Source: Dipteris shenzhenensis
Taxonomy: Eukaryota
DNA length: 64,000 nucleotides
Assembly (NCBI GenBank): GCA_047967505.1
Contig: CM106538.1
Strand: one strand, 5' to 3'
Shown: in pieces, positions 1,546 through 18,200 of the stretch
Layout of the letters: each line of letters begins with the position of its first letter
Position numbering within the stretch: the first letter of the stretch is position 1
Translations under genes and position numbers: made by a program
The notes under the pieces: generated by a model
Told to the model about the DNA's origin: nothing
Database searches by the model: none
The model's input: the letters and a program-made list of their open reading frames with translations, nothing else

Positions 1546-3858
1546 ATGGCTGGCAACAATCATGATTTATTTGGCATTCTTCATGAAGATGATAAGTTGG
1601 ATGGCACCAAATATCCGATGTGGTCTTATCTCATGAAACATATTCTTGTTGCAAGGCATTTTTGGAACATTGTTTCTGGGGTTGATCTGAGGCCAGCCAA
1701 TGCTACAATGGCTTGCCAGTCCCCCTGTAGAGGCTACTCCTCTTGATGCTTTATCCTCTAGCACCCCTGTTGCTGCTCTTCCAACTTAGGAGCAAACAAG
1801 ATGGGATGCAAGAGATCCAAATGCACATTCCTGTATTGCTTTATCATGCAAGAGAATCATTATTCCACACATCCGGTCATGCAGGATAGCAAAGGATGTT
1901 TGGGACAAATTGGCTTCTCTTTATCAGATTTGCAATGAGGCACGTGCTGCATATTTAAGAAGGCAATTGCAGGAAGTCAACATGAATGAAGGTGACTCTA
2001 TGGATGCATAGTTAACAAAGGTCAAGGACCTCATGGAACAACTTGCCAATATTGATGAAGTGGTGCCCAATTCTCAGCTTCTCAGTACCACATTGAATGG
2101 TTTGCCAGATAGAAATCAAGGGTTCGCTACAACCCTTTGACTAGTGGCCATGGGTAATCCAAACCACAACTGCTTTGATCAGTTAGTCACTTTGCTTTTG
2201 CAGGAAGAGCAAAGTCATGCTAATAGACAAGCTACTATTCCTGATCATGCATTTGCTTCTTAGCAGACAGGAAAAGGCAAGGCTTCCAAGCCTATGGGCA
2301 AGCCTAAATATGCACCTAACGCTGGCAATTCCTCCAATGCATCTCAAAATACAGCTGACAAGTCAAAGAAGAAAAGATGCAACTATTGTCGCAAGCAAGG
2401 GCATGAAAGTTCAGAATGCAGGAAGCGCATTGCTTCGAAGAAAAAGAAAGTAGGATTGACAGTCAATGCCTCACATGCAATTGAATCCCACGAGCCAGCA
2501 GAAGCCTCACATGCACATGCTCTCTAGGATGATTGGGCATGGACTGTCCATTGCTCCTTTGATCCCTCCAAAGTTGATGCATTCTTTACTGTTAATGTTC
2601 TTTTTGTGCCTGGAATTGAAGTCAACTTGATTTCAATTTCAATAATTGCCACTTCAAGTTTTAGAGTGATATTTGATGGATACAGATGCTTAGTATGTGA
2701 TCTTCATGATGACAATGCCATAGTTCTCACTGGCACTTTGCAAAAGCGGCTTTATCACCTTGATCATCACTAAGTTGTACTTTCTATTGAAGCATTTGCG
2801 ATTTTAGATTCACAGCTTGCTGAAACTCATCTTTGGCATGAGAGAATGGGTCATCTCAATTATAGAGCTCTTGCCAAGTTACATTCATAGGGCATGGCAA
2901 ATGATGTACCTCAAACTCACACAATTTCCAAACATGTGTGTGAGGGTTGTATTTTGGGTAAGATGCATCGGTTTCCTTTTCAAAAGAATTGTCCAAAATT
3001 CTCACAAAGGAAATTGCAGCTAGTGCACAGTGATGTCTGTGGCCTAATGAGGACAAATGCCATTAGGGGGTACAAATATTTCATGACTCTAATTGATGAC
3101 TTCACAAGGTATTGCTGGGTATACGCTTTAAAAGCCAAATCTAAAGTGTTCTCATGCTTTCAGAGCTGGCTGAATATGGTTGAGAATGAATCAAGATGGA
3201 AGCAACACAGATAGGGGGGAGAGTATATGTCAAAGGAGTTTGATGCATTTTTGTCTTCACGAGGCATTGTTCACTCATGCACTACTCCTTACACTCCTTA
3301 GCATAATCATGTTCCTGAAAGAAAGAACAGGTGCACTATGGAGATGGCTAGATGCATGCTTAAGGCCAAGTCCTTGCCCAATAAATTTTGGCTTGATGCA
3401 GTGATGTGTGCCAACTATGTGCTGAATAGATCACCTACAAGGGCATTGAGGTCTGTTACACCTTATGAAGCATGGAAACGTAGGAAGCCTTCACTTTCAC
3501 ACATGAGAGTTTTTGGATTTCTTGCATATGTTCATGTACCATCTCAGCTGAGACATAAGCTTGATAATAAGGCAATCAAATGCATACTTATTGGTTACAG
3601 CCAGGCGACAGAGGGTATCGGTTATACCAACCAAGTACTTGGAAGATTATTGTCAGTAGAGATGTAATCTTTACTGAAGATTCAGCTTCTCATCTTATGG
3701 ACTGCAAAGCTAGGCCACAAGTTGACATGTTTGATGCCTTTGACTCTTGGTTACCTCTGCTTCCCTCAGAGGGAGACTTCGACCAGCAACATGAGCTTCC
3801 CCTCCAACAAGCAATGATCAGCCAGCACCCCATGCTGATTTGTAGGTTCCTCTTTTAG
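1546..3858 (+). pseudogene. Degenerate Copia gag-integrase polyprotein
   Basis: ORF fragments 1546, 2294 (CX2CX4HX4C), 2894, 3338 (MARCML..W..AV..ANY..NRSP; KLDNKAIKCILIGY), 3580 (SRDVIFTE), with stops and frameshifts. Confidence 0.9.
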
Positions 3859-3912: not shown

Positions 3913-4728
3913 GGCTTGGTTTTTTGGTTTTCCACGGGCTTGGGGATTCTCTTTCTAGTTTCCCTTTCCTGTACTCTCTGCTATAGATTTTTGCATTTGT
4001 TTGACTTGTGCTTACACTTGCTTTTGAACTTGCCTCACCAATTTGGCAATAGATTCGTGTTTGGGTAAGTTTTTAGCTTCTCCCATTGCTTGATCCTGTG
4101 CCTCTCTACGCTTAGCGAAGGCATTCTATTTGATCTTACTATTGAGAAGGCTGGTAATCCTAAAATTGTTGATGGCATTTTTAAAATCTCGAACCAACTA
4201 ATTGTGCCATTCCTTGGTAGTGTTTTTCCAAAGGATTTGTGGTGTGTCAAGTAGGTTGAGATCAGTCATCATCAAAGCCAAAATTTCACGAAGGCTAGCC
4301 TCAAAAGTTTGAGGGTAGTCCATGAGCTTTTTCTCTAAATTAGAGACTGTGAGTTTTTGGGCTTCAATAAGCGCATCATGGCATTTCATCCTATACTCAT
4401 TGCATAGGGCTGTCAAAGACTGCTGGATCGCGGTCTGTTTTTCGATCCTTTTGCAAAAGCTCTTAGCCCTGTCTAGTGCTTGGAAGGTCTTTTTGTACTC
4501 TTCAATGGACTTTCTAAGAAAATCCAAGCAATGTGAAGGTAGCTTGTTGATAGCTTCCAAGAAAGTAGTCGGGGTACTCGCAATGGCATCATCTGCATCT
4601 CGACGACGCTTCTGTCAATTTCCAACATTACTGAAGGGGTTATGTGGCACATCTTCACTGACAAAACGAAAGACCTCAAGAGCTCTAGAAGAAGCTCCCT
4701 CGTGGTCGCCTTCCGCTATATTCACCAT
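3913..4728 (-). pseudogene. Second, 3'-truncated copy of PLE ORF1 (coiled-coil protein)
   Basis: Aligns with ~8778-9586; MVNIAEGDHEG start at 4728; RKSIEEYKKTFQALDRAKSF and EAQKLTVSNLEKKL shared. Confidence 0.8.
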
Positions 4729-4736
4729 GATAACAA

Positions 4737-5703
4737 GGTTTAGGTTTTAGAAAAATAAGAAAAGGTGTGTAGTAGTGAAGTGTGAGTGATTGGCTAGCTG
4801 CGGCAGCAAAAAATGAAAAAAATGGAATTTGCGAGGGTCGGTTATGTGGTTAAAACTGTGTCTAAAAAACTATGTGAAGAATGTGCTTGTGAAGTGTGCA
4901 AAGGTGCTTAAAGTGCTAAGAATACATGTGTAAGGTAGAATACTCAAGTATTAAACACAAAACTAAGTAACCAAAAGCTCATGGACAAAAAGATGGCCAG
5001 AAGCACACACTGTACATGAACAAATTGATGTTCAAGTACTAATAAACATCCAAGCAAGCATGAAACAGTACGTGAGCAACAAGTTGCACAAGTACTCACA
5101 CACAAGAGCAATACATGATCAACAAAGTTGCACAAGTACCTCACATAAAGACACAAAGACACAAGAGACAAAAAGAGATAGAAAATCCTCTTTGTATTAC
5201 AAGCGGTGCTTTGTTCTAGCTTTGTTTCGCTTGATATTCTCAAGCTCATCAATGGAATACTTGAAAACTGAGAACACGAATGAGAGAAGCTCCCCCTTTA
5301 TAGTGGGGGGAGGCCACTTTTTGTCCTCTTTTCTTATGGGATTACTATTGGGGCATCGCCACGTGTCAATAGCCCACAAAATCAAAAATTTGATTTCTAG
5401 GGACTGGTTATGTTAGCCCAAAAATAACCCTGAAATGCTCAAAAAATGGTCCAAAAAGAGTGTGAAAAGTCCCAAAATGACAACCCGAGCCTGAGAGGTC
5501 TCATATGCCATAAAGGCGGATGCTCTAGGGGGTGTCTTACAAGGTAGGACGTGCACGGCCTAACTAGACCTAGGCATCTTAAGACGTGATTTGACCAAAA
5601 AAGAGCGAAGGTTTCATGGATTCCTCTAGCAAATGATTGGTCGAGGTAGATGCTGTAGCTCAAGATGTTGTTGGCAAAGTCGATGAAGTTTAGGATTTAG
5701 GGT
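4737..5703 (-). repeat. PLE pseudo-LTR unit 2 (~965 bp)
   Basis: Direct repeat of 5704-6683; bounded by aggtttaggttttag and gtttaggatttaggg. Confidence 0.85.
5205..5260 (-). ncRNA. Degenerate type I hammerhead ribozyme motif (pLTR copy)
   Basis: Minus strand ttcca-tTGATGA-gcttga-gaata-tcaagc-GAAA: perfect 6 bp stem II; first core C and stem III altered. Confidence 0.6.
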
Positions 5704-6683
5704 TCTAGAAAAATAAGAAAAGGTGTGTAGCAGCGAAGTGTGAGTGGTTGGCCAGCTACGGTACCAAAACAGTTGCTATGGCAACAAAAAATTAAAAAAA
5801 TGGAATTTTCGAGGGCCAGTTATGCAGTTATGTGCTTAAAATTGTGTCTAAAAAACTGTGTGAAGAATGTGCTTGTGAAGTGTGCAAAGATGCTTAAAGT
5901 GCTAAACATGAGTAAGGTAGAATACTCAAGTAGTAAACATAAAACTAAGCAACCAAAAGCTCATGGACAAAAAGATGGCCAAGAGCATACACTGTACATG
6001 AACAAATTGATGTTCAAGTACTAATAGACATTTAAGCAAGCACGAAACAGTACATGAGCATCAAGTTGCACAAGCACTCACACATAAGAGCAATACATGA
6101 GCAACAAGGTTGCACAAGTACCTCACACAAAGACACAAAGACACAAGAGAGACAAAAAGAGATAGAAAATCCTCTTTGTATTACAAACGGGTGCTTTGTT
6201 CCAAACTAGTTTTGCTGGATATTCCCAAGCTCATCAATGGAACACCCAAAATGTGAGCATACAAATGAGAGAAGCTCCCCCTTTATAGTGGGGGGAGGCC
6301 ACTGTTTGTCCTCTTTGCTTATGAGATTACTCTTGGGGCATTGCCACGTGTCAATAGCCCATAAAAGCAAAAATTTGATTTTCGGGGACCGGTTATGTTA
6401 GCCCAAAAATAACCCTAAAATGCTAAAAAATGGTCCAAAAAGAGTGCAAAAAGTCCCAAAATGATGACCTGAGCCTAAGGGGTCTCATATGCCATAAAGG
6501 TGGTTGCTCCAGGGGGTGTCTTACAAGGTGGGACCCACACGGCCTAACTAGACCAAGGCATCTTAAGACGTGGTTTGACCAAAAAAGAGCAAAGGTTTCG
6601 TGGATTCCTCCAGCAAATGATTGGTCGAGGTAGATGCTGTAGCTCAGGATGTTGGCAAAGCCGGTGAAGTTTAGGGTTTAGGG
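5704..6683 (-). repeat. PLE pseudo-LTR unit 1 (~980 bp; begins inside the RT C-terminus at (CCCTAAA)2)
   Basis: Direct repeat of 4737-5703 and inverted repeat of 10092-10912. Confidence 0.85.
6189..6247 (-). ncRNA. Degenerate type I hammerhead ribozyme motif (pLTR copy)
   Basis: Minus strand gggtgttcca-tTGATGA-gcttgggaatatccagc-aAAA-ctag-tt-tggaac..caccc; stem I intact, two core transitions. Confidence 0.6.
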
Positions 6684-8320
6684 CGATTCCCAAGTTTAAA
6701 GCTTTCGTGTACTTTGACTAGTCAAGCTTAAGAACAAGGGGGGTCCTTTCACCCACCGAGGCTTGCCTTTTGGAAGATCCTTTAAGTAGAGTCGATCTCA
6801 TCCTGTAGGTGATTTTGTTGAAGCAATTCCGTAGAGTCTTATCTGGGTAACCACGAGATCTAAGGCATTGGTAAAACAAGATTCTAAGCCTCTTGTAGCC
6901 TTCAAACGTGCTTTCCCTGATGACATAGCGACGAAGTTCTCCGATGATGAAAGACTCTTTTTGGTGCTTCAGATGCCAAGAAGAGTAAGGAAGATATTGG
7001 TACCTATTCAACTCTTTTTGGTATTAACTAGAAGAGAGCTTTCCTGTGAAAGAAAAACATGGTCCCTTGAAAAGGTGAATGTCCAGAATATCAACAAAGG
7101 ATGTAGAGTAGCATGGGGTAATTCTAATATGGTCCTGAAAATCTTTTCCATAATCTTCAAGGTATTTGTCCAGATCAGATGAGGATCCCACCCATAAGCC
7201 GAATGCATCATCAATGTAGCGCCTGTAATATAACAGCTCTGAAGGAGGCTGTTTAACTTCCTACATGTTCTCCATGTGACAAAGGAAAAGGCAAGCATAA
7301 ACCACGGCAAAGTTGCTTCCCATAGCTATTCCTATTATCTGATGCTAAAATCTGCCTTCGAATTCTAAATAGCAATTTTTTAAAACCAAAGTGGCAAGAG
7401 ACATGATGAGGTTCAGTTCCATTATCTTGAAGTCATTCCTGATCATCTGCCGCAAGGCTGTAAGACCTTGATCCGTGGGAATACTAGGATATAGAGATTC
7501 CACATCAAAGGTAAAGAGAATGACATCTTTTGGTAAATGCAACTCAGAGATTTCTTTCAGTAGAGTGATAGAGTCCTTGAAATGTTGTTTGTGTCGAAGG
7601 GAATCGGAAAAAGTTCGTGGTGCAACCAAATAGAAGCATGCTCAAATAGAAAACCATTGTAAGAGTAGATTGGTTTGCCTACCAAAGCGGGTTTGTGGAT
7701 CTTCAGGAGGAAGTACAGGGCACAAACTCGAAAACCTGAACTAGGCTTCTGGAGGATGTATCTGACCTCTTCTGACGAAGGGATCTTTGACTCTAAGCAA
7801 ACCTGTTGCAACTGAAAGAATAGCTCCTCTAAGGGAACCTCCTGAATTGGTTCATATACTGCTGCATCTGTCAATTGCCTTTCTCCCTCTTTGACATACT
7901 AAGACTTATCCAAGATGGCTAGACCAAGATTTTTTTCAGCTAGTTTGATCACAATATCTTGGTTATTTTGCAATCTTTTGAGAGCCATTATCAAGGAAAG
8001 AGGAAGGTGGCATTTGGAGAGATTGGAGCAACGGGAGATAGATTCATGGAGAAGTTGTCTGCTGATAATGATAATATCTTCGAGAGGTTGGAAAGTTTCT
8101 CAAGGGTTCCAATTAGGATTGGGTACTCTGAAGAGTGAAGCAGGCCTATCCGGATTGGAGCGATAAAACCATCGAAGGTGCATTTATCTCACAAAACATC
8201 AAAGTCTACGAAAAGCTGAGTTGGTTCTGGAGGAGCGGACAGAGGGATGTAGCCCAAACCTAAACCCAAGAGTTTCTTCTCATGAAAGGAGAGACATATC
8301 TGAGAGAGGTTATGGATCAT
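6544..8320 (-). pseudogene. Penelope-like reverse transcriptase (ORF2), no endonuclease domain
   Basis: MIHNLSQ..EKKLLGLGLGYIP start; IVIKLAEKNLG; KIHKP; FDVESLYPSIP; GIAMGSNFA; YYRRYIDDAF; YLPYSSWH..GELRRY..RGYP; ends PIICWRNPRNLCSFLVKPRL..stop; several stops and frameshifts. Confidence 0.9.
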
Positions 8321-9586
8321 AGTGTTGGAGATACAGCAATCAAACTCAGAAGGAGTTTCCTAGAGAAAAAGAGAAGAGCATAATGTTCTGGATTTAGGAG
8401 AGGGAGCCAAAAGAGCCGCCTTAGCCACGGGTGTTTTGGCCTCTTTCTCGACTTGGTGGAGCAGAGTTGTTGCTTCGTGCACGTGGTCGTTTCTATTGTC
8501 TTCCTGAACCAGATTTCTGGCATTCTGGTTTTTGCATGACGAGGAAGGTTGTGCATGTGAGGGGGTGAAAGGCTTCTATCGAGCTTTGTTCCCCTACTAT
8601 TGTCGGTTTCCCTGCTAGTTTCCCTGTCAGTTTCCTTGCAAGTTTCCCTGTCAGTTTCCTTGTGAGTTTCCTTGCCGGTTTCCGTGCTAGTTCCCTTGCC
8701 GGTTTCCCTTTTGGATTTGAGAACGATTGCCCTAACTGTTTCTCTATCTGTTTCCCTTCCTGTTTTGTCTATTTCCTTGGTTTTTGGTTTTCCACGGGCT
8801 TGGGGATTCTTTTTCTGGTTTCCCTTGCCTGTACTCTCTGGTATAGATTTTTGCATTTGTTTGACTTGTGCTTGCACTTGCTTTTGAACTTGTTGCCTCA
8901 CCAGCTTGGCAATAGATTCCTGTCTGGGCAAGTTTTCAGCTTCTCCCATTGCTTGATCCTGTGCCTCTCTACGCTTGGGGAAGGCATTCTGTCTGATCTT
9001 ACTGTTGAGAAGGATGGTAGTCCTGAAACTGTTGATGGCAATTCTAAAATCTCAAACCAACCGATTGTGCCATTCCTTGGTAGTGTTTTCCCAAAGGATT
9101 TGTGGTGTGTCAAGTAGGTTGAGATTAGTCATCAAAGCCAAAATTTCACGAAGGCTAGCCTCAAAAGTTTGAGGATAGTCCATGAGCTTTTTCTCTAAAT
9201 TAGAGACTGTGAGTTTTTGGGCTTCAATAAGTGCATCATGGCATTTCATCCTATACTCATTGCATAGGGCTATCAAAGACTGCTGCATCGTGGTGTGGGC
9301 TACATCATCTAGCACTAAGAGTTGTGGTGGTTTCAACTTCAGACTATTGGGAATTGCACCTTCTTGCTTCTATTCTTCGAGCCTTTTACAAAAGCTCTTA
9401 GCCCTGTCTAGTGCTTGGAAGATCTTTTTGTACTCTTCAATGGACTTTCTAAGAAAATTGTCTTGACGACAATCGATTTCCAACATTACCAAAGGGGTTG
9501 TGTGGCACATCTTCACTGACAAAATGAAAGACCTCAAGAGAGCTAGAAGAAGCTCCCTCATGGTCACCTTCCATTATATTCACCAT
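8317..9586 (-). pseudogene. PLE ORF1: coiled-coil, basic protein with an 8-aa (24 bp) repeat block
   Basis: ORF pieces 9370-9567, 9052-9336, 8317-8949; Q/K-rich helix VRQQVQKQVQAQVKQ; ETGK/ETDR repeats at ~8600-8710; duplicated at 3913-4728. Confidence 0.75.
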
Positions 9587-9599
9587 GATAACAAGGTTC

Positions 9600-9930
9600 G
9601 GCTAGGTGCGACTGCAAAACAATAGCTGCGGAAGAAAAAAATGGAAAAAATGAAAATTTCGGGGGCCGGTTACGTGCTTAAAACTATGTCTAAAAAACTG
9701 TGAAGAATGTGCTTGTGAAGTGTGCAAAGCTACTTAAAATGCTAAGAATACATGAGTAAGGTATAATACTCAAGTACTAAACACAAAACTAGGAAACCAA
9801 AAGCTCATGGACAAAAAGATGGCCAAGAGCACACGCTATACATGAACAAATTGATGTTCAAGTACTAAACATACAAGCAAGCATGAAACAGTACGAGCAA
9901 TAGGTTGCACAAGTACTCACACACATGAGC
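9600..9930 (-). repeat. Partial pLTR/5' UTR upstream of ORF1
   Basis: Aligns with ~4810-5110 and ~5790-6090. Confidence 0.8.
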
Positions 9931-10421
9931 TATAGTTTTTTGGATCGTCTCTGCAACAAAATCCCCTGCAGGATGAGATCAACTCTACTCGAAGCATCTT
10001 CCAAAAGGCAGGGCTCCGGCGGGTAAAAGGACCCCCCTTGTTCTTAAGCTTGACTACTCAAAGTACACGAAAGCTTTAAACTTGGGGGTCACCCTAAACC
10101 CTAAACTTCACTGCCTTTGCTAACAACATCCTGAGCTACAACATCTACCTCGACCAATCATTTGCTGGAGGAATCCATGAAATCTTTGCTTTTTTTTGGT
10201 CAAATCATAGCTTAAGACACCTAGGTCTAGTTAGGCCGTGCAGATCCCACCTTGTAAGACACCCCTTGGAGCATCCACCTTTATGGCATATGAGACCTCT
10301 CAGGCTTGGGTCATCATTTTGGGACTTTTTACATTGTTTTTGGACTATTTTTGAGAGTTTTAAGGTTATTTTTAGGCTAACATAACCGGTCTCCAGAAAT
10401 CAAAATTTTGATTTTATGGGC

Positions 10422-10496
10422 TATTGACACATGGCGATACCCCAAGAGTAATCCCATAAGCAAAGAGGACAAAAAGTGGCCTCCCCCAACTATAAA
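10422..10496 (+). promoter_or_regulatory. Candidate Pol II promoter in the pLTR (G-box/ABRE-like element plus TATAAA)
   Basis: TATAAA at 10491-10496 is conserved in all three full copies; GACACGTGGC is perfect at 5358-5367 and 6343-6352 (minus strand) and reads gacacatggc here. Confidence 0.5.
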
Positions 10497-10530
10497 GGGG
10501 GAGCTTCTCTCATTTGTATGCTCACATTTT

Positions 10531-10589
10531 GGGTGTTCCACTGATGAACTTGAGAATATCAAGCGAAACTAGTTTGGAACAAAGCACCC
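10531..10589 (+). ncRNA. Minimal type I hammerhead ribozyme (best-preserved copy)
   Basis: gttcca(10535-40)-CTGATGA-a-cttga/gaata/tcaag-c-GAAA-CTAG-TT-tggaac(10575-80); stem I extended by gggtg/caccc across a bulge; palindromic 4 nt stem III. Confidence 0.8.
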
Positions 10590-10896
10590 GTTTGTAATAC
10601 AGAGAGGATTTTCTATCTCTTTTTGTGTCTCTTGTGTCTTTTTGTCTTTGTGTGAGGTACTTGTGCAACTTTATGGCTCATGTATTGCTCTTGTGTGTGA
10701 GTACTTGTGCAATTTTTGCTCATGTACTGTTTAGTAGCACATTCTTCACATAGTTTCTTAGACACAGTTTTAAGCACGTAACCGGCCCTCGAAATTTCCA
10801 TTTTTTTATTTTTTGTTGCTGCGGCTACTGTTTTGCTGCCGCAACTGGCCAATCACTCACACTTCACTGCTACATACACACCTTTTCTTATTTTTC

Positions 10897-10963
10897 TAAA
10901 ACCCTAAACCCTGCCTGCAAATTGGTTTAGGGTTAGGGTTAGGGTCATGGTCAAGGTTTAGGG
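10897..10963. repeat. Short interstitial telomeric repeats in opposite orientations
   Basis: CCCTAAACCCT (10902-10912), spacer, TTTAGGG TTAGGG TTAGGG (10926-10944), TTTAGGG (10957-10963). Confidence 0.8.
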
Positions 10964-13950: not shown

Positions 13951-15214
13951 CATTCTGTTCTTGCTAGTAGGGTGCACCTTCACGTGATAACATGTCAGGA
14001 AGTACATTGGTGACACCTTTTTTCCATTCGAAAGTGAAGTCATACATGGTAAAGAACTCTTGCTAACAAGTGAGGCGTCTGCGATCAATTTGTTTATCAA
14101 TCTTGCGAGTGCAAAAGGTTTTAAAGTTTTGATTGTCGGTGCGGACAATGAAGGTTTTGTTGACTATGAAGAGTTCCATTTTCTGGATAGCATGCTTGAC
14201 TACCAAAATTTCTTTTTCAATGGAATGGTAGTTTTGCTCAGTACCTTGGAAAGTACTAGATTTGTAGGAACAAATGACCTCTTGTGTGGGAGTGCGCTCC
14301 AAGAGCACAACACCCTAGAAATTGTTAGATGCATCCGTCTCTATTATTAATAAAACATGTTCAAAGGGGATGCTTAAAGCAGGAAGGTGTTGGACTCAAT
14401 CCTTGATTCATTGACCAGCTTGAGTCCTCCTTAAGTCTAGGGTTGACCCCATGGTTGGCCATCTTTTCTGAGGCAAAGTTGGAGGGCATATCGATCTCAT
14501 GCCAATTGCTCATAGAAAGAGGAGATATGGTTGAGGCAACCAAGAAAGTGCGATCTTTGATTTCATCAGGGAAGGCAAGGAGGGCTTTCAAGACATGGTC
14601 CTACATTTGGTGGCAACCTTTATAGATGTGGACACTAAGAAATTCAATTGTCTCTTGCCCAATGGTGATTTTCTTGGCGGATAGAGCCCCAAGCCTTTAG
14701 CCTTGATTAATTCATACACAATAATTAGGTGCTTAAGGTGCGAAGAGGCATCCTTACTACATACAAAAATATCATCCATATGCACTAAGCAGAAATCATG
14801 ATATGCTCCAAAGATTGAATCCATAAATTTTTGAAACTCAATTGGAGCAGTCTTCAAACCAAACAGAAGAACATTCCATTGGTAAAACCCCTGAGGAACC
14901 ATGAAGCCAGTTTTATGGCGATCTTTAGGGACGAGACCAACTTGCTAGAAGCCACCTTTGAGATCAAATTTAGAAAAGATGGTGGATTGTGTAATCTTAT
15001 TGGGGATATAATTTATTACCAACTTCTTTTTACCACGCTTCTGCTCCAAGAGTTTGTTGACATAAAAGGTAGTTACAGCTCATTCGGAGTGAGTGGGAGA
15101 TGAGGCCCATATCTAGGAGTTCCTATATGTCTTGATTGCAAAGAATTTGATCATCCTAGGTAAACCCATAAGGGCTTTCTTTAAAGGGCTTCGAATTCTC
15201 CAGTAGGGAAAGTG
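13950..15214 (-). pseudogene. Caulimovirid RT-RNase H
   Basis: EQKRGKKKLVINY, FSKFDLKGGF, VPQGFYQWNVLLFGLKTAP, LVHMDD, ETDAS, NYHSIEKEIL, FIVRTDN, NVLPDMLSR; internal deletions. Confidence 0.9.
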
Positions 15215-15226
15215 AAACCTAGTGCT

Positions 15227-18200
15227 CCCTTACCTCAGGAGGAGACTCTTGATCCTATTTAGACAGACGCCTTCCAGACTCCAGAGGTGGATGTTGCTGC
15301 AACCCTAGACACTACAGTTCCACATCAGGAGGGGCCTTTAGATCCACCAGCCCCAGTCACTTTGGTCTCTGACCCCTTGGTTTCTGACCATGAGGGGACT
15401 ACAGGTACTTCTTCCCTGCAGACTGCTCCTGCCATAGTCAAGACAACGAGAAAGTGTAGGTGTAGATGAGGGCTCCTGATTCCTCTTCACCCCATCCACA
15501 GGCCTCCTCAACCCCCAGCTCCGGTTCTGCTGATAGAGAACTGGCAGGTCCTTCTCCTCCATCTTCCACGAGTGTAGGTCTTCTTTGCACTCCTTGGCCA
15601 GACTTGCTTATCAAGAATTCTTTTTTGGCATTGGCAGATTCGGCGACTTTCATGGATGATGAGGAGTTTGTGCCCTCCACCTTAGGGGTCCCGATCATTG
15701 GGATTCCTTCTAACAGGGCCTCCCTTTCAGCAGGTGTGGGGATCCTTTCACCTGTTGAGTTTCCTGCCCTCAGCAGGAGTGTTTTGGCCCAGGGGAAGTT
15801 GGTCTCCTCTACTAGGTCAGGTAAGCCTTTCCATCCAGCATCCTCTTGTCGATGAGGATAGTCAGCTGGAACATACAGGGCCTAGGCGGAGTTCCACACC
15901 GTCACTGTAGGTAGCTGATCCGGAACTAGCTTCATCCAAGCATCACTGGAGGTGCTATTGATATCCTTTTTATCCAGGAACACAAGATGGATGCCAGTGA
16001 TTGCTCTAAGTCTGGCAGACTGCTTTCAAGACATACCTTCTGGTTGCCTGCTATGGGCACAAGGGGAGGTACTTGCATTTTGATCTCTCTTTCTATTCTC
16101 CCCTTGGTTGTTGGTCATGGTATTATCTCCCCTTCTAGAGCTCAATGGATCATTATTTTGATTGGAGGGCGTAAGATTGGTCTTCTCAATCTTTATGCTC
16201 CCAACAACAGAGGGGAACAGATCTCCTTTTGGAAGGAGTTACTCTCTTGGGTCCCCATTGCAGATTCTTGGATCATTGGTGGCGACTTCAACATGGTTGA
16301 GTTGCCTTCAGACAAAAAGGGAGGTAGACAGGGTGGAATTCATTCTTTGGAGAGGGCAGCCTGGGATGCCTTTCTCTTTTAGTTCAGTGGCAGAGACACT
16401 TGGTTGGATGATGCCTTTCATATTATGCCACAGTCACTCCTGTACTCTTGGTTGAACATGAAAATACACATGCCCAGCACGGATTAACAGATTTTATGTA
16501 GACAATTGGGCACTTGACAGAGGAGGATCTATATGCATTTCTACTCGGGTTTCCACCTCAGATCATTTTCCAATGGTGTTGCAGATTATTGAGCCTCATT
16601 GGAGAGGATGCTCTGCTAGTGTCAGGATTCCGGATGCTTTTTATGCAGAGGAGAGCCTCACGAAGGATATTTTATAGATTTGGGTTTCTCACATATAGGG
16701 TGGAGCTATCCATCCATCTCAGGTAGCTGCAGCCTTATCCGGAATTAGTGACTATTATCATACAGTCAATGATTCTAGGAGACGTGAGATTCTCAAATGT
16801 GAGATTGGTATACGCCAGCAGTTAGGATCCCTTCAGAGGGAAGAGCAGAAGAGGCCCATAGATGCTTGGATTTAGGAGCGCCTTGTTGCAGCAAGGGCTC
16901 ATTTGCAGACATTGTTGGATCAGAGAGCAGAGTATGCCTTTCATGCACGGGAATCCTTTTGGATTCAAATGGGTGGCAGGGTCAACAAACACTTTTTCTC
17001 TACTCATGGGCCCAGATATAATAGAGATAGTGTTTCATAGCTTGTTGACTCAGACGGGGTGTTACAGTCACATCCTGATGCTGTCATGCATGTAGCTTCA
17101 GATTTTTTTGCATCCCTTCTTACTGCATATCTAGGCACACAAGCCATTGACGATGCTAGAGAGGTTATTTGGCAGTGTATCCATGTATTGGTTAAGGATG
17201 AGATGTATGTTTCTTTGGATGCACCTTTCACCAATGCACAATTCAAGATTGCATTACTTGCCCTTCACAAGGGCAAGTGCCCAGGTTCAGATGGACTTAC
17301 TGCCTCCTTTTTTATTACTTTTTGGGAGCAGATTGGTGATCACATTACATCAGCCCTATACGGCATGTGGGACTCTGGTGAGATGCCGGGATCACTTACA
17401 GATGGTCTCGTTCATCTCATCCCAAAGGGGGGTAATAGGAATCTTGTGTCTCAATGGAGACCCATCACTCTTTTGGGAACTTTTTACAAGATTCTGGCGA
17501 AAGCCATCAGTCTGTGGCTATATATTTTTCTTCTAGATTTGATTTATGACATGCAAACAAGGTTTGTGCATGGCAGAAGTATTTTTGATAATATTTTCTC
17601 ATTTTGGGAGGCCTCAGAATGGGCCATGCAGAGCCGCCAGAGATTGGCCATTCTACTCTTGGACTTTGAGACAGCTTATGATAGAGTAGACTAGGATTTT
17701 TTAGAGGGTACTCTATCTCGCTTTGGTTTTTCAGATGCATGGATTAGAGGAGTATCCTCTCTCTACAAATCAGCCCATAGCCAGTTGCTCATTTGGGGGG
17801 TAAGAGGGGACAGGTTTCAGATTTCCAGATCCGTCCGCCAGGGATGTCCTCTTGCCCCGTTTCTTTTTCTATTTGTGGCGGAAGCTATGAGTATCTACAT
17901 TAGATCTCAAGCTGATATTTATGGGCTGAGGCTTCCTATCCACTGGGAAGAAGAGCTCCTGGATAGTGAGTTGGCAGAGGACATGGCTGTTTTTTTGGAT
18001 GCCTCCCCCAGGACACTCACTTCCTTCCGGACAACCTTGGATTTGTTTTGCATGGCTACAAGTGCACACATTAATTGGCATAAATCCAGTGGTTTTTGGA
18101 TTTGCGAGGATGACACCCCGGATTGGGGTAATGATATTGGCTTCACTTAGGTATAGAGGGGCTTCTCTATTAGATATTTGGGCTGCCAGGTTGGGGTGGG

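Follow-up and report, generated by a model that had tools for sequence, protein, structure and literature searches.

The question raised by a stretch of 64,000 nt from the Dipteris shenzhenensis genome (GenBank assembly GCA_047967505.1, contig CM106538.1; called here the window) is whether a motif of 59 nt on its plus strand is a hammerhead ribozyme (HHR), what kind of retroelement carries it, and how such a ribozyme could act in that element. HHRs have been described in the terminal repeats of Penelope-like elements (PLEs), together with a model in which they work as dimers, and canonical type I HHRs have been reported for the PLEs of Selaginella (Cervera and de la Pena 2014, PMC4209133). Published accounts place hammerheads in every PLE clade but Naiad and most of Chlamys (PMC8557442), give the endonuclease-lacking (EN-) PLEs an architecture in which reverse-complement telomeric repeats accompany an HHR close to the 3′ end (PMC8557442, PMC6431247) and list EN- PLEs for Selaginella, Pinus and Picea (PMC9033089). 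With nearly every Penelope-like clade known to have hammerheads, and with EN- PLEs on record for these plants, a hammerhead is expected at such a locus; the association itself is already known, and the window case is a well-supported further example of it. The motif is very probably a genuine type I HHR of a plant EN- PLE lineage ending in reverse-complement telomeric repeats, present here as three mutated relics of a dead element.

The plus-strand motif (Table 1) reads, from 5′ to 3′, GGGU (outer helix), GUUCCA (helix I), CUGAUGA, the helix II hairpin A-CUUGA-GAAUA-UCAAG-C, GAAA, CUAG, UU, UGGAAC, AAAGC and ACCC. Its catalytic core (C3 U4 G5 A6 N7 G8 A9 and G12 A13 A14) is complete, the A15.1-U16.1 pair is present and H17 is not G. 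A15.1-CUAG-U16.1 makes a perfect palindrome of 6 nt, with which helix III could reach 1 bp in a monomer and 6 bp (ACUAGU) in a dimer. A preliminary description, made from the sequence alone, had given this motif and two homologues on the minus strand (copies A and B), and the motif has the sequence, and the homologues have the coordinates, that it reported. It had also placed the ribozyme in every full 'pseudo-LTR' (long terminal repeat), and the homologous segment is indeed carried by all three repeat copies that span the region, a fourth, partial copy (9934-9636, minus strand) stopping before it.

A crude pattern search of the window gave three matches at no more than three mismatches against 0.97 expected; 6 of 100 shuffles also reached three, so that the result is not significant alone. 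A strict descriptor failed to catch the plus copy, owing to its A10.1·C11.1 mismatch. When Rfam was searched in the E-value mode, the model Hammerhead_HH9 could be aligned with the plus copy end to end, at 11.9 bits against a gathering score of 52. The decisive search used a covariance model, R1, built from 32 distinct motif instances of related loci only (window sequence excluded, duplicates and instances too near a contig end removed, calibration rough) and run over the whole window with filters off. It ranked the plus copy and copy A above the best unrelated match (11.7 bits, E 0.86) and copy B below it. Because R1 was made without the window sequence and scores the plus copy at E about 2e-7, the motif is not a product of chance. 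A search with hammerhead covariance models, which had been proposed as a check, thus gave nothing at the Rfam gathering thresholds, whereas the model derived from relatives returned the plus copy at 34.2 bits.

The relatives were reached through the reverse transcriptase (RT) of the element: its broken frame, read through with X at three stops (P0001), was used in a protein search, and an alignment of 21 homologues led to 67 loci of a metagenome collection. A first scan of these loci with a regular expression (two core boxes and a palindromic 4-mer) gave a sense-strand match in most of them. Of the 67 loci, 51 gave R1 matches, for a total of 53 ribozymes with 52 in the sense and one in the antisense orientation; 41 of them come after the RT match, at a distance of 104-1068 nt from its end, and the other 12 are found 1.6-3.2 kb upstream of its start, which corresponds to the preceding copy. 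Core columns C3, U4, G5, A6, G8, A9, G12, A13 and A14 are invariant in all 32 distinct relatives, and positions 15.1 and 16.1 form A-U in 32 of 32. Pairing was counted in A2, a MAFFT alignment of the 32 distinct rows made without fitting to any structure. Standard pairs fill 93.1% of 377 cells, a share that drops to 30-40% once the 3′ partners are shifted by 1-3 columns. Helix I is paired in 89.1% and helix II in 92.2% of cells, and both-side changes occur in 10 of 12 pairs (8 of 9 for helices I and II), the three helix III 'pairs' having been pre-selected by the palindrome filter. The R1 match, together with the RT homology set out below, bears out the proposal that a type I hammerhead resides in the repeated terminal region of a PLE.

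Helix III, as read from the sequences, is an A15.1-U16.1 pair around a self-complementary insert of 4 nt. A rescan without the palindrome filter gave 48 candidates with core and helix II, all in the sense orientation and 47 of them with a palindromic insert; the 48th (L019) fails the helix I criterion alone and also has CUAG. A hairpin is impossible for a self-complementary insert of 4 nt with a closing A-U pair, and two ribozymes are therefore predicted to pair with each other. Five palindromes occur among the relatives (CUAG, CAUG, UGCA, CCGG and CGCG), which substantiates the suggestion that the palindromic helix III points to dimer action and agrees with PMC4209133. G10.1-C11.1 is present in every relative, three rows seeming unpaired only through an extra U after A9. 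Cleavage by dimers was reportedly described by Lunse, Weinberg and Breaker in 2017.

At position H17, 33 of 35 distinct relatives have U, one has A, one has C and none has G. GUU would accordingly be the ribozyme family's own cleavage triplet, and the idea that the GTT of the window is a GTC decayed by methylation is refuted by these counts. The C11.1-G12 step is a CpG in every family member, and G12→A has arisen in copy A and, independently, in locus L052. Past the internal loop, a Watson-Crick run of at least 5 bp adjoins helix I in 23 of 36 cases against 4.3% of shuffles; a looser test (longest complementary run with G-U allowed) gave means of 6.8 for cognate, 6.0 for non-cognate and 5.5 for shuffled strands and barely discriminates. 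The outer helix gggtg/caccc proposed for the window is therefore real in many relatives but weak in the window itself, where it has 3 bp by the strict measure and 3-4 bp overall. The word 'minimal', which had been applied to this hammerhead, needs qualifying: helix I has 6-7 bp and a short outer helix, helix III is small and palindromic, and the nearest Rfam model is the canonical-type HH9. In its predicted shape the motif is a type I hammerhead of the canonical kind in which helix III is reduced. All 77 positions of Hammerhead_HH9 (RF02275, canonical metazoan type I) could be aligned with relative L010 (32.5 bits, local E 5.7e-7), and the two share an outer helix, an internal loop, an inner helix I of 4-6 bp and the run CUGAUGA-GCUC...GAGC-GAAAC. 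In contrast to HH9, the helix III hairpin is replaced here by A-U plus the 4-nt palindrome, and the score of L010, like that of the window copy, stays under the gathering score.

Two observations on single loci or groups stand beside this picture. Locus L035 contains two hammerheads on the same strand (5490-5552 and 5747-5809), 257 nt apart, the second with a G5→U core change; the ribozyme region has thus been duplicated as a short tandem. L056, L058, L060 and L063 form a distant group (RT about 30% identical) with the CGCG palindrome, an extra U after A9, a GGCC-type helix II and U, A or C at H17; in L056 (about 3399-3420) telomere-like repeats occur about 70 nt upstream, not downstream, of the ribozyme.

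The family resembles the PLE type I hammerheads of PMC4209133 in its sense-strand position within a repeated terminal region, in the very short helix III with a palindromic insert, in G10.1-C11.1 (in the relatives) and in the dimer action proposed for both. By description it also resembles the canonical-looking type I HHRs reported there for the EN- PLEs of Selaginella. Unlike the minimal HHRs (min-HHRs) of that paper it is not devoid of helix III. It further differs from the PLE hammerheads described there in that A9 and 10.1 are directly adjacent in the plant-type members (an unpaired base between them is confined to the four loci of the distant group), in that H17 is U in nearly all members, and in that the nearest named RT relatives include seed plants (Cryptomeria, Ginkgo).

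All three copies in the window carry a damaging change and, with the broken RT gene, are relics. Copy A has lost C3 (C3→U) and G12 (G12→A, at the C11.1-G12 CpG) and has an A→C mismatch in helix II; copy B has C3→U, an altered 5′ outer region, and CAAAGCUAG in place of helix III and the 3′ strand of helix I. The C3-G8 pair has been found to be required for hammerhead activity (PMC11167929). The catalytic core is thus broken in copy A (U3, A12) and in copy B (U3), and the window copies are predicted to be inactive now, because the plus copy has A·C at 10.1-11.1, A and B are without C3, A is without G12 and B is without helix III and the 3′ strand of helix I. It had been suggested that the homologues complement the defects of the plus copy. 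This holds for position 10.1, which is G in copies A and B and A in the plus copy, but each copy has defects of its own, and C3 is found in only one of the three window copies, the consensus C being otherwise taken from relatives. As a separate observation, H17 and position 1.1 are both U in the plus copy (10566-10575) and in all plant-type relatives, by which the palindrome grows to 10 nt (AAACUAGUUU); this longer palindrome could draw A13 and A14 into base pairs and so be a competitor of the active fold, and the optimum of the cofold described below makes use of it.

The host of the ribozyme was classified by its RT. The P0001 search returned 189 longer homologues, down to E 4.7e-111, the best of them about 550-660 aa long; the nearest 30 are without GIY-YIG (PF01541), and the named nearest ones belong to Cryptomeria japonica, Ginkgo (Gb_ identifiers) and Selaginella moellendorffii. 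The homologues carry DUF8422 and HTH_animal (plus RVT_1), PF01541 being borne by more distant matches (about 30-35% identity), and the nearest Atlas clusters come from rotifers, chordates and arthropods and have the same domain families. Some 57 codons beyond the RT thumb the open reading frame (ORF) comes to its end, just as it does in the homologues, and it encodes no endonuclease. No GIY-YIG or RT Pfam match was obtained for seven ORF fragments of the element, nor for P0001 and P0002, the Pfam set searched being without the newer PF28514 and PF26215. By RT homology, the lack of an endonuclease domain and the 3′ architecture, the host element is classed as an EN- PLE.

The minus-strand units of Table 1 form a head-to-tail array, in which the tail of one unit is followed by the full-length unit, the 5′-truncated unit B and the 5′ part of a further unit. 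The full unit comprises coiled-coil/basic ORFs, the RT with PLE hallmarks (frameshifts occur further upstream) and hammerhead A; its 5′ end is TTGTTATCATGG at 9594 and its 3′ end AACCCTAAA at about 5704-5697. The 'pseudo-LTRs' of the preliminary description are thus a repeated terminal region, but one made of the 3′ regions of head-to-tail, partly 5′-truncated EN- copies joined at telomere-like repeats.

Table 1 Hammerhead copies, element units and associated motifs in the window (positions count from its first letter)
Feature	Position	Strand	Basis
Best-preserved hammerhead copy (plus copy)	10531..10589	+	sequence; model R1 34.2 bits, E 1.8e-7
Plus copy, outer helix	10531-10534 / 10586-10589	+	sequence
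Plus copy, helix I	10535-10540 / 10575-10580	+	sequence
Plus copy, core CUGAUGA	10541-10547	+	sequence
Plus copy, helix II hairpin with A10.1·C11.1 mismatch	10548-10564	+	sequence
Plus copy, GAAA	10565-10568	+	sequence
Plus copy, palindrome ACUAGU (A15.1 = A10568, U16.1 = U10573)	10568-10573	+	sequence
Plus copy, H17 = U10574; predicted cleavage between the two positions given	10574/10575	+	standard hammerhead numbering
Decayed hammerhead copy A	6189..6247	-	R1 20.5 bits, E 0.0022; repeat homology
Decayed hammerhead copy B	5205..5260	-	repeat alignment; R1 10.0 bits, E 2.9 (noise level)
TATA box (TATAAA), about 40 nt before the ribozyme's first base	10491..10496	+	sequence
3′-terminal reverse-complement plant telomeric repeat of the plus copy (CTAAAACCCTAAACCC)	10896..10912	+	
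Inverted 5′-truncated copy: end of RT ORF, 3′ untranslated region with TATA box and hammerhead, 338-nt tail, terminal AACCCTAAACCC	9951..10913	+	
Tail of one unit, preceding the full unit	9934-9595	-	
Full-length unit, about 3.9 kb	5697..9594	-	repeat alignment, RT homology
RT of the full unit, three in-frame stops	6721-7641; ORF end ~6544	-	read-through translation
5′-truncated unit B, with hammerhead B, ending in AAAACCTAAACC (4748-4737)	4737..5703	-	starts within telomere-like repeat of ORF C-terminus
5′ part of a further unit, following unit B	4736 to ~3915	-	

The units finish in sequence resembling AACCCTAAACCC, which is the plant telomere repeat in reverse complement, and the 5′ end of the next unit (TTGTTATCATGG) stands directly after it. 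CCCTAAA-like 3′ ends of this kind are AACCCTAAACCC at 10900-10911 (plus strand) and, on the minus strand, AACCCTAAA at about 5704-5697 and AAAACCTAAACC (Table 1). Among the relatives, two-unit CCCTAAA patterns were found 60 times in the sense and once in the antisense orientation, in 11 of the 67 loci; loci L039, L040 and L052 have long telomeric arrays at contig ends. In the window and the relatives, the telomeric repeats lie roughly 130-500 nt downstream of the ribozyme. At the junction near 5704 a CCCTAAA stretch at the 3′ end of one unit is shared with a telomere-like run in the coding sequence of the next. The junction 9595/9594 (minus strand), between the first tail and the full unit, lacks the terminal 55 nt of the 3′ end and with them the telomere-like repeat, and lies at an internal AACC (compare 4790-4737, minus, and 10856-10912, plus); it suggests that reverse transcription can start at internal microhomology. 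Both junctions would fit priming by short telomere-like microhomology.

Further telomere-like sequences occur at the array. A perfect two-unit plant telomere repeat in the sense orientation (CCCTAAACCCTAAAC) is found in the C-terminus of the RT ORF (10092-10106, plus; 6670-6683 and 5689-5702, minus), where it encodes LNPKL (LNPTL in homologues); its position within the ORF rules out that the stretch at 10092-10106 is a non-coding telomeric tract. Unit B begins exactly at this coding stretch, as if it had been used as a priming or healing site. Degenerate TTTAGGG-like repeats (TTTAGGGTTAGGGTTAGGG ... TTTAGGG) at 10926-10963 (plus strand), the only telomeric G-strand sequence at the array, start twelve bases past the 3′ end of the inverted copy. 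As they follow that end, C-strand and G-strand repeats face each other, an arrangement that may have been left by an interstitial telomere or by the fusion of two ends.

In several of these features the element agrees with the Athena/Terminons and Coprina elements (PMC8557442, PMC6431247): it has no GIY-YIG endonuclease, its HHR is near the 3′ end, and its copies, some of them 5′-truncated, are arranged head to tail and joined at telomeric repeats. It is unlike them in that its repeats are of the plant type CCCTAAA and are separated from the ribozyme by the distance given above rather than placed 'immediately downstream', in that a TATA box precedes the ribozyme, and in that the window array is embedded among other transposons.

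TATA boxes are found upstream of all three window copies, and TATA[AT]A is present at -45 to -15, relative to the model match, in 28 of 35 distinct relatives. Kinship inflates this count; random positions in the same loci gave 1.2 of 35 on average and at most 4 (200 draws). The usual distance from a TATA box to the start would place initiation of transcription near the first bases of the ribozyme. With a conserved TATA box about 30 nt upstream, transcription probably starts at the 5′ edge of the ribozyme. In many relatives, long CT/GA dinucleotide or pyrimidine-rich tracts (L019, L021, L013 at 4020-4065) flank the TATA-hammerhead module, upstream of the TATA box. A narrow literature search found no paper that joins a TATA box to the hammerhead in Penelope elements, and a prior description is possible.

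In an active element, two copies would pair through ACUAGU/ACUAGU into a helix III of 6 bp, the partners lying either on one read-through transcript of the head-to-tail array or on two transcripts, and each site would be cut after G-U-U to leave a 2′,3′-cyclic phosphate and a 5′-OH. A transcript begun at the TATA box of an upstream unit would run through the downstream unit and so have a ribozyme at each end. Cleavage would then trim a leader of about 50 nt and separate multi-unit transcripts into defined RNAs, to be reverse transcribed from telomere-like G-rich 3′ ends as primers. Two window copies cofold at -38.2 kcal/mol against 2 × -15.2 for monomers, the dimer being better by 7.8, in an energy model that cannot represent the active fold.

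Several observations weigh against this reading of the locus. No R1 match was found in 16 of the 67 loci; in 11 of them the contig extends for less than 700 nt past the ORF match, but L027, L031, L046, L061 and L062 have at least 700 nt downstream and yet no match at E ≤ 0.01. Nothing reached the Rfam gathering thresholds, either in the whole window or in the 20 related loci tested. The relatives are kin, so that shuffle-based counts, among them an observed covariation score reached by none of 500 shuffles, overstate independence. Within the window, the plus copy and copy A are 91.5% identical (54/59) in the ribozyme segment and 90.6% over the 720-nt repeat, and nothing in these sequences points to constraint on the ribozyme since the window copies arose. 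The monomer optimum (-15.2) is an alternative fold, the hammerhead fold being at -12.5. The predicted cleavage site matches neither end of the genomic copies: their 5′ ends, at TTGTTATC, directly follow the telomere-like repeat, and their 3′ ends are 338 to about 500 nt downstream of the site. Lastly, the HHR of another PLE cleaved only with the protein of that element present, and catalytic mutants left insertion in vitro unaffected (PMC11167929).

The last two points bear on an explanation in which the hammerhead-shaped fold is kept as a structural 3′ module, for example for recognition or positioning of the RT near the telomeric tail, with self-cleavage no part of the life cycle. The mutants just mentioned are those of the PAc HHR, for which no RNA-seq reads ended at the cleavage site; PLE min-HHRs are poor cleavers in vitro (PMC4209133), and a review has a 3′-terminal 'ribozyme fold' exposing the telomeric stretch (PMC6431247). 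The window copy ends do not map to the cleavage site, and the ribozyme family retains GUU. This triplet is cleaved more slowly than GUC. Such a scaffold would not, however, need a catalytic core without a single change in 32 of 32 distinct relatives whose helices are free to vary, nor does it agree with an H17 that is never G in 35 of 35 rows or with a palindromic helix III, the signature of dimer-activated cleavage (PMC4209133), and we regard it as unlikely. Still less can be said for a chance look-alike or another class of RNA such as a C/D-box small nucleolar RNA, which is effectively refuted. CUGAUGA does include a C-box-like UGAUGA, the simple pattern search is not significant, and Rfam gives weak matches to SNORD66, snoZ107_R87 and snoZ112, but at 12.1-12.7 bits (E 4.2-4.9) these are far under the gathering scores of 32-50, while R1 separates the plus copy (E about 2e-7) from the next unrelated match and covarying homologous motifs are found in 51 of 67 related loci.

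The spacing of the minus-strand hammerheads (982-985 nt) raises the further idea that the tandem pair of 982 nt (A-tail and unit B) is a non-autonomous, hammerhead-bounded element like a retrozyme, spreading as a small circular RNA. Retrozymes (PMC7761336, 10.64898/2026.07.22.740005) are likewise hammerhead-bounded repeat units tied to retroelements, and those of the animal non-LTR kind have dimer-dependent type I ribozymes and have been proposed to be derivatives of PLE terminal repeats (bioRxiv 10.64898/2026.07.22.740005); the two ribozymes 257 nt apart in L035 would also be in keeping with it. Against this, the ribozyme here belongs to an element encoding its own RT, unlike those of retrozymes, and plant LTR retrozymes use type III hammerheads (PMC7761336). 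Unit B starts inside the C-terminal coding part of the RT ORF, shares the telomere-like 3′ terminus of the full unit and is followed by the normal 5′ end of another unit, as a 5′-truncated autonomous copy in an array would be, and one such pair was seen, within the window; we think this explanation very improbable. A circular RNA could enter in another way. TATA box and hammerhead may act as one module in an element replicating through a circular RNA that is made by the ribozyme and closed by a host ligase, a possibility that we rate as low. RNA polymerase II would start at the 5′ edge of the ribozyme, so that transcripts would begin and, in an array, end with a hammerhead; dimer cleavage would free uncapped unit-length RNAs with 5′-OH and cyclic-phosphate ends, and reverse transcription would proceed from a telomere-like G-rich 3′ end on CCCUAAA once round the circle. 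This would explain why the 5′ end of a unit (TTGTTATC...) abuts a telomere-like repeat although no promoter or cleavage site is found there. If true, it would give plants an autonomous retroelement linking PLEs, retrozymes and viroid-like RNAs. The preferred reading is still that of a type I HHR of an EN- PLE, which in an active element would act as a dimer.

Other features of the element and its surroundings were noted. A tandem repeat of 12/24 nt in the basic ORF upstream of the RT (8601-8709, minus strand) encodes (K/R)ETx(K/R)ET-like repeats. A tail segment of about 170 nt after the ribozyme is present at 5874-6041, 4888-5062 and 9714-9885 (all minus) and missing from the plus copy near 10735. 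The array is flanked by other transposon ORFs: transposon-like frames at 2891-3858 (plus), 14588-14944 (minus) and 15930-16382 (plus) comprise putative integrase-like (next to the point near 3915 where the array breaks off), RT-like and endonuclease-like types. A 220-nt tandem repeat occupies 998-1451.

What the locus adds to the known association is a covarying ribozyme family in a plant EN- PLE lineage, with named relatives including Cryptomeria and Ginkgo, that is missed by the Rfam models, together with a conserved GUU triplet, a TATA box and the distance to the telomeric tail, details that may already have been described. That the palindromic helix III occurs in five variants speaks strongly, on comparative grounds, for these ribozymes acting as dimers. 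The TATA box just upstream suggests where the transcripts of these elements start, and the junctions, as we infer, show priming on telomere-like microhomology. With the TATA box and the junctions, the question of what purpose the hammerhead serves in PLEs becomes testable in plants.

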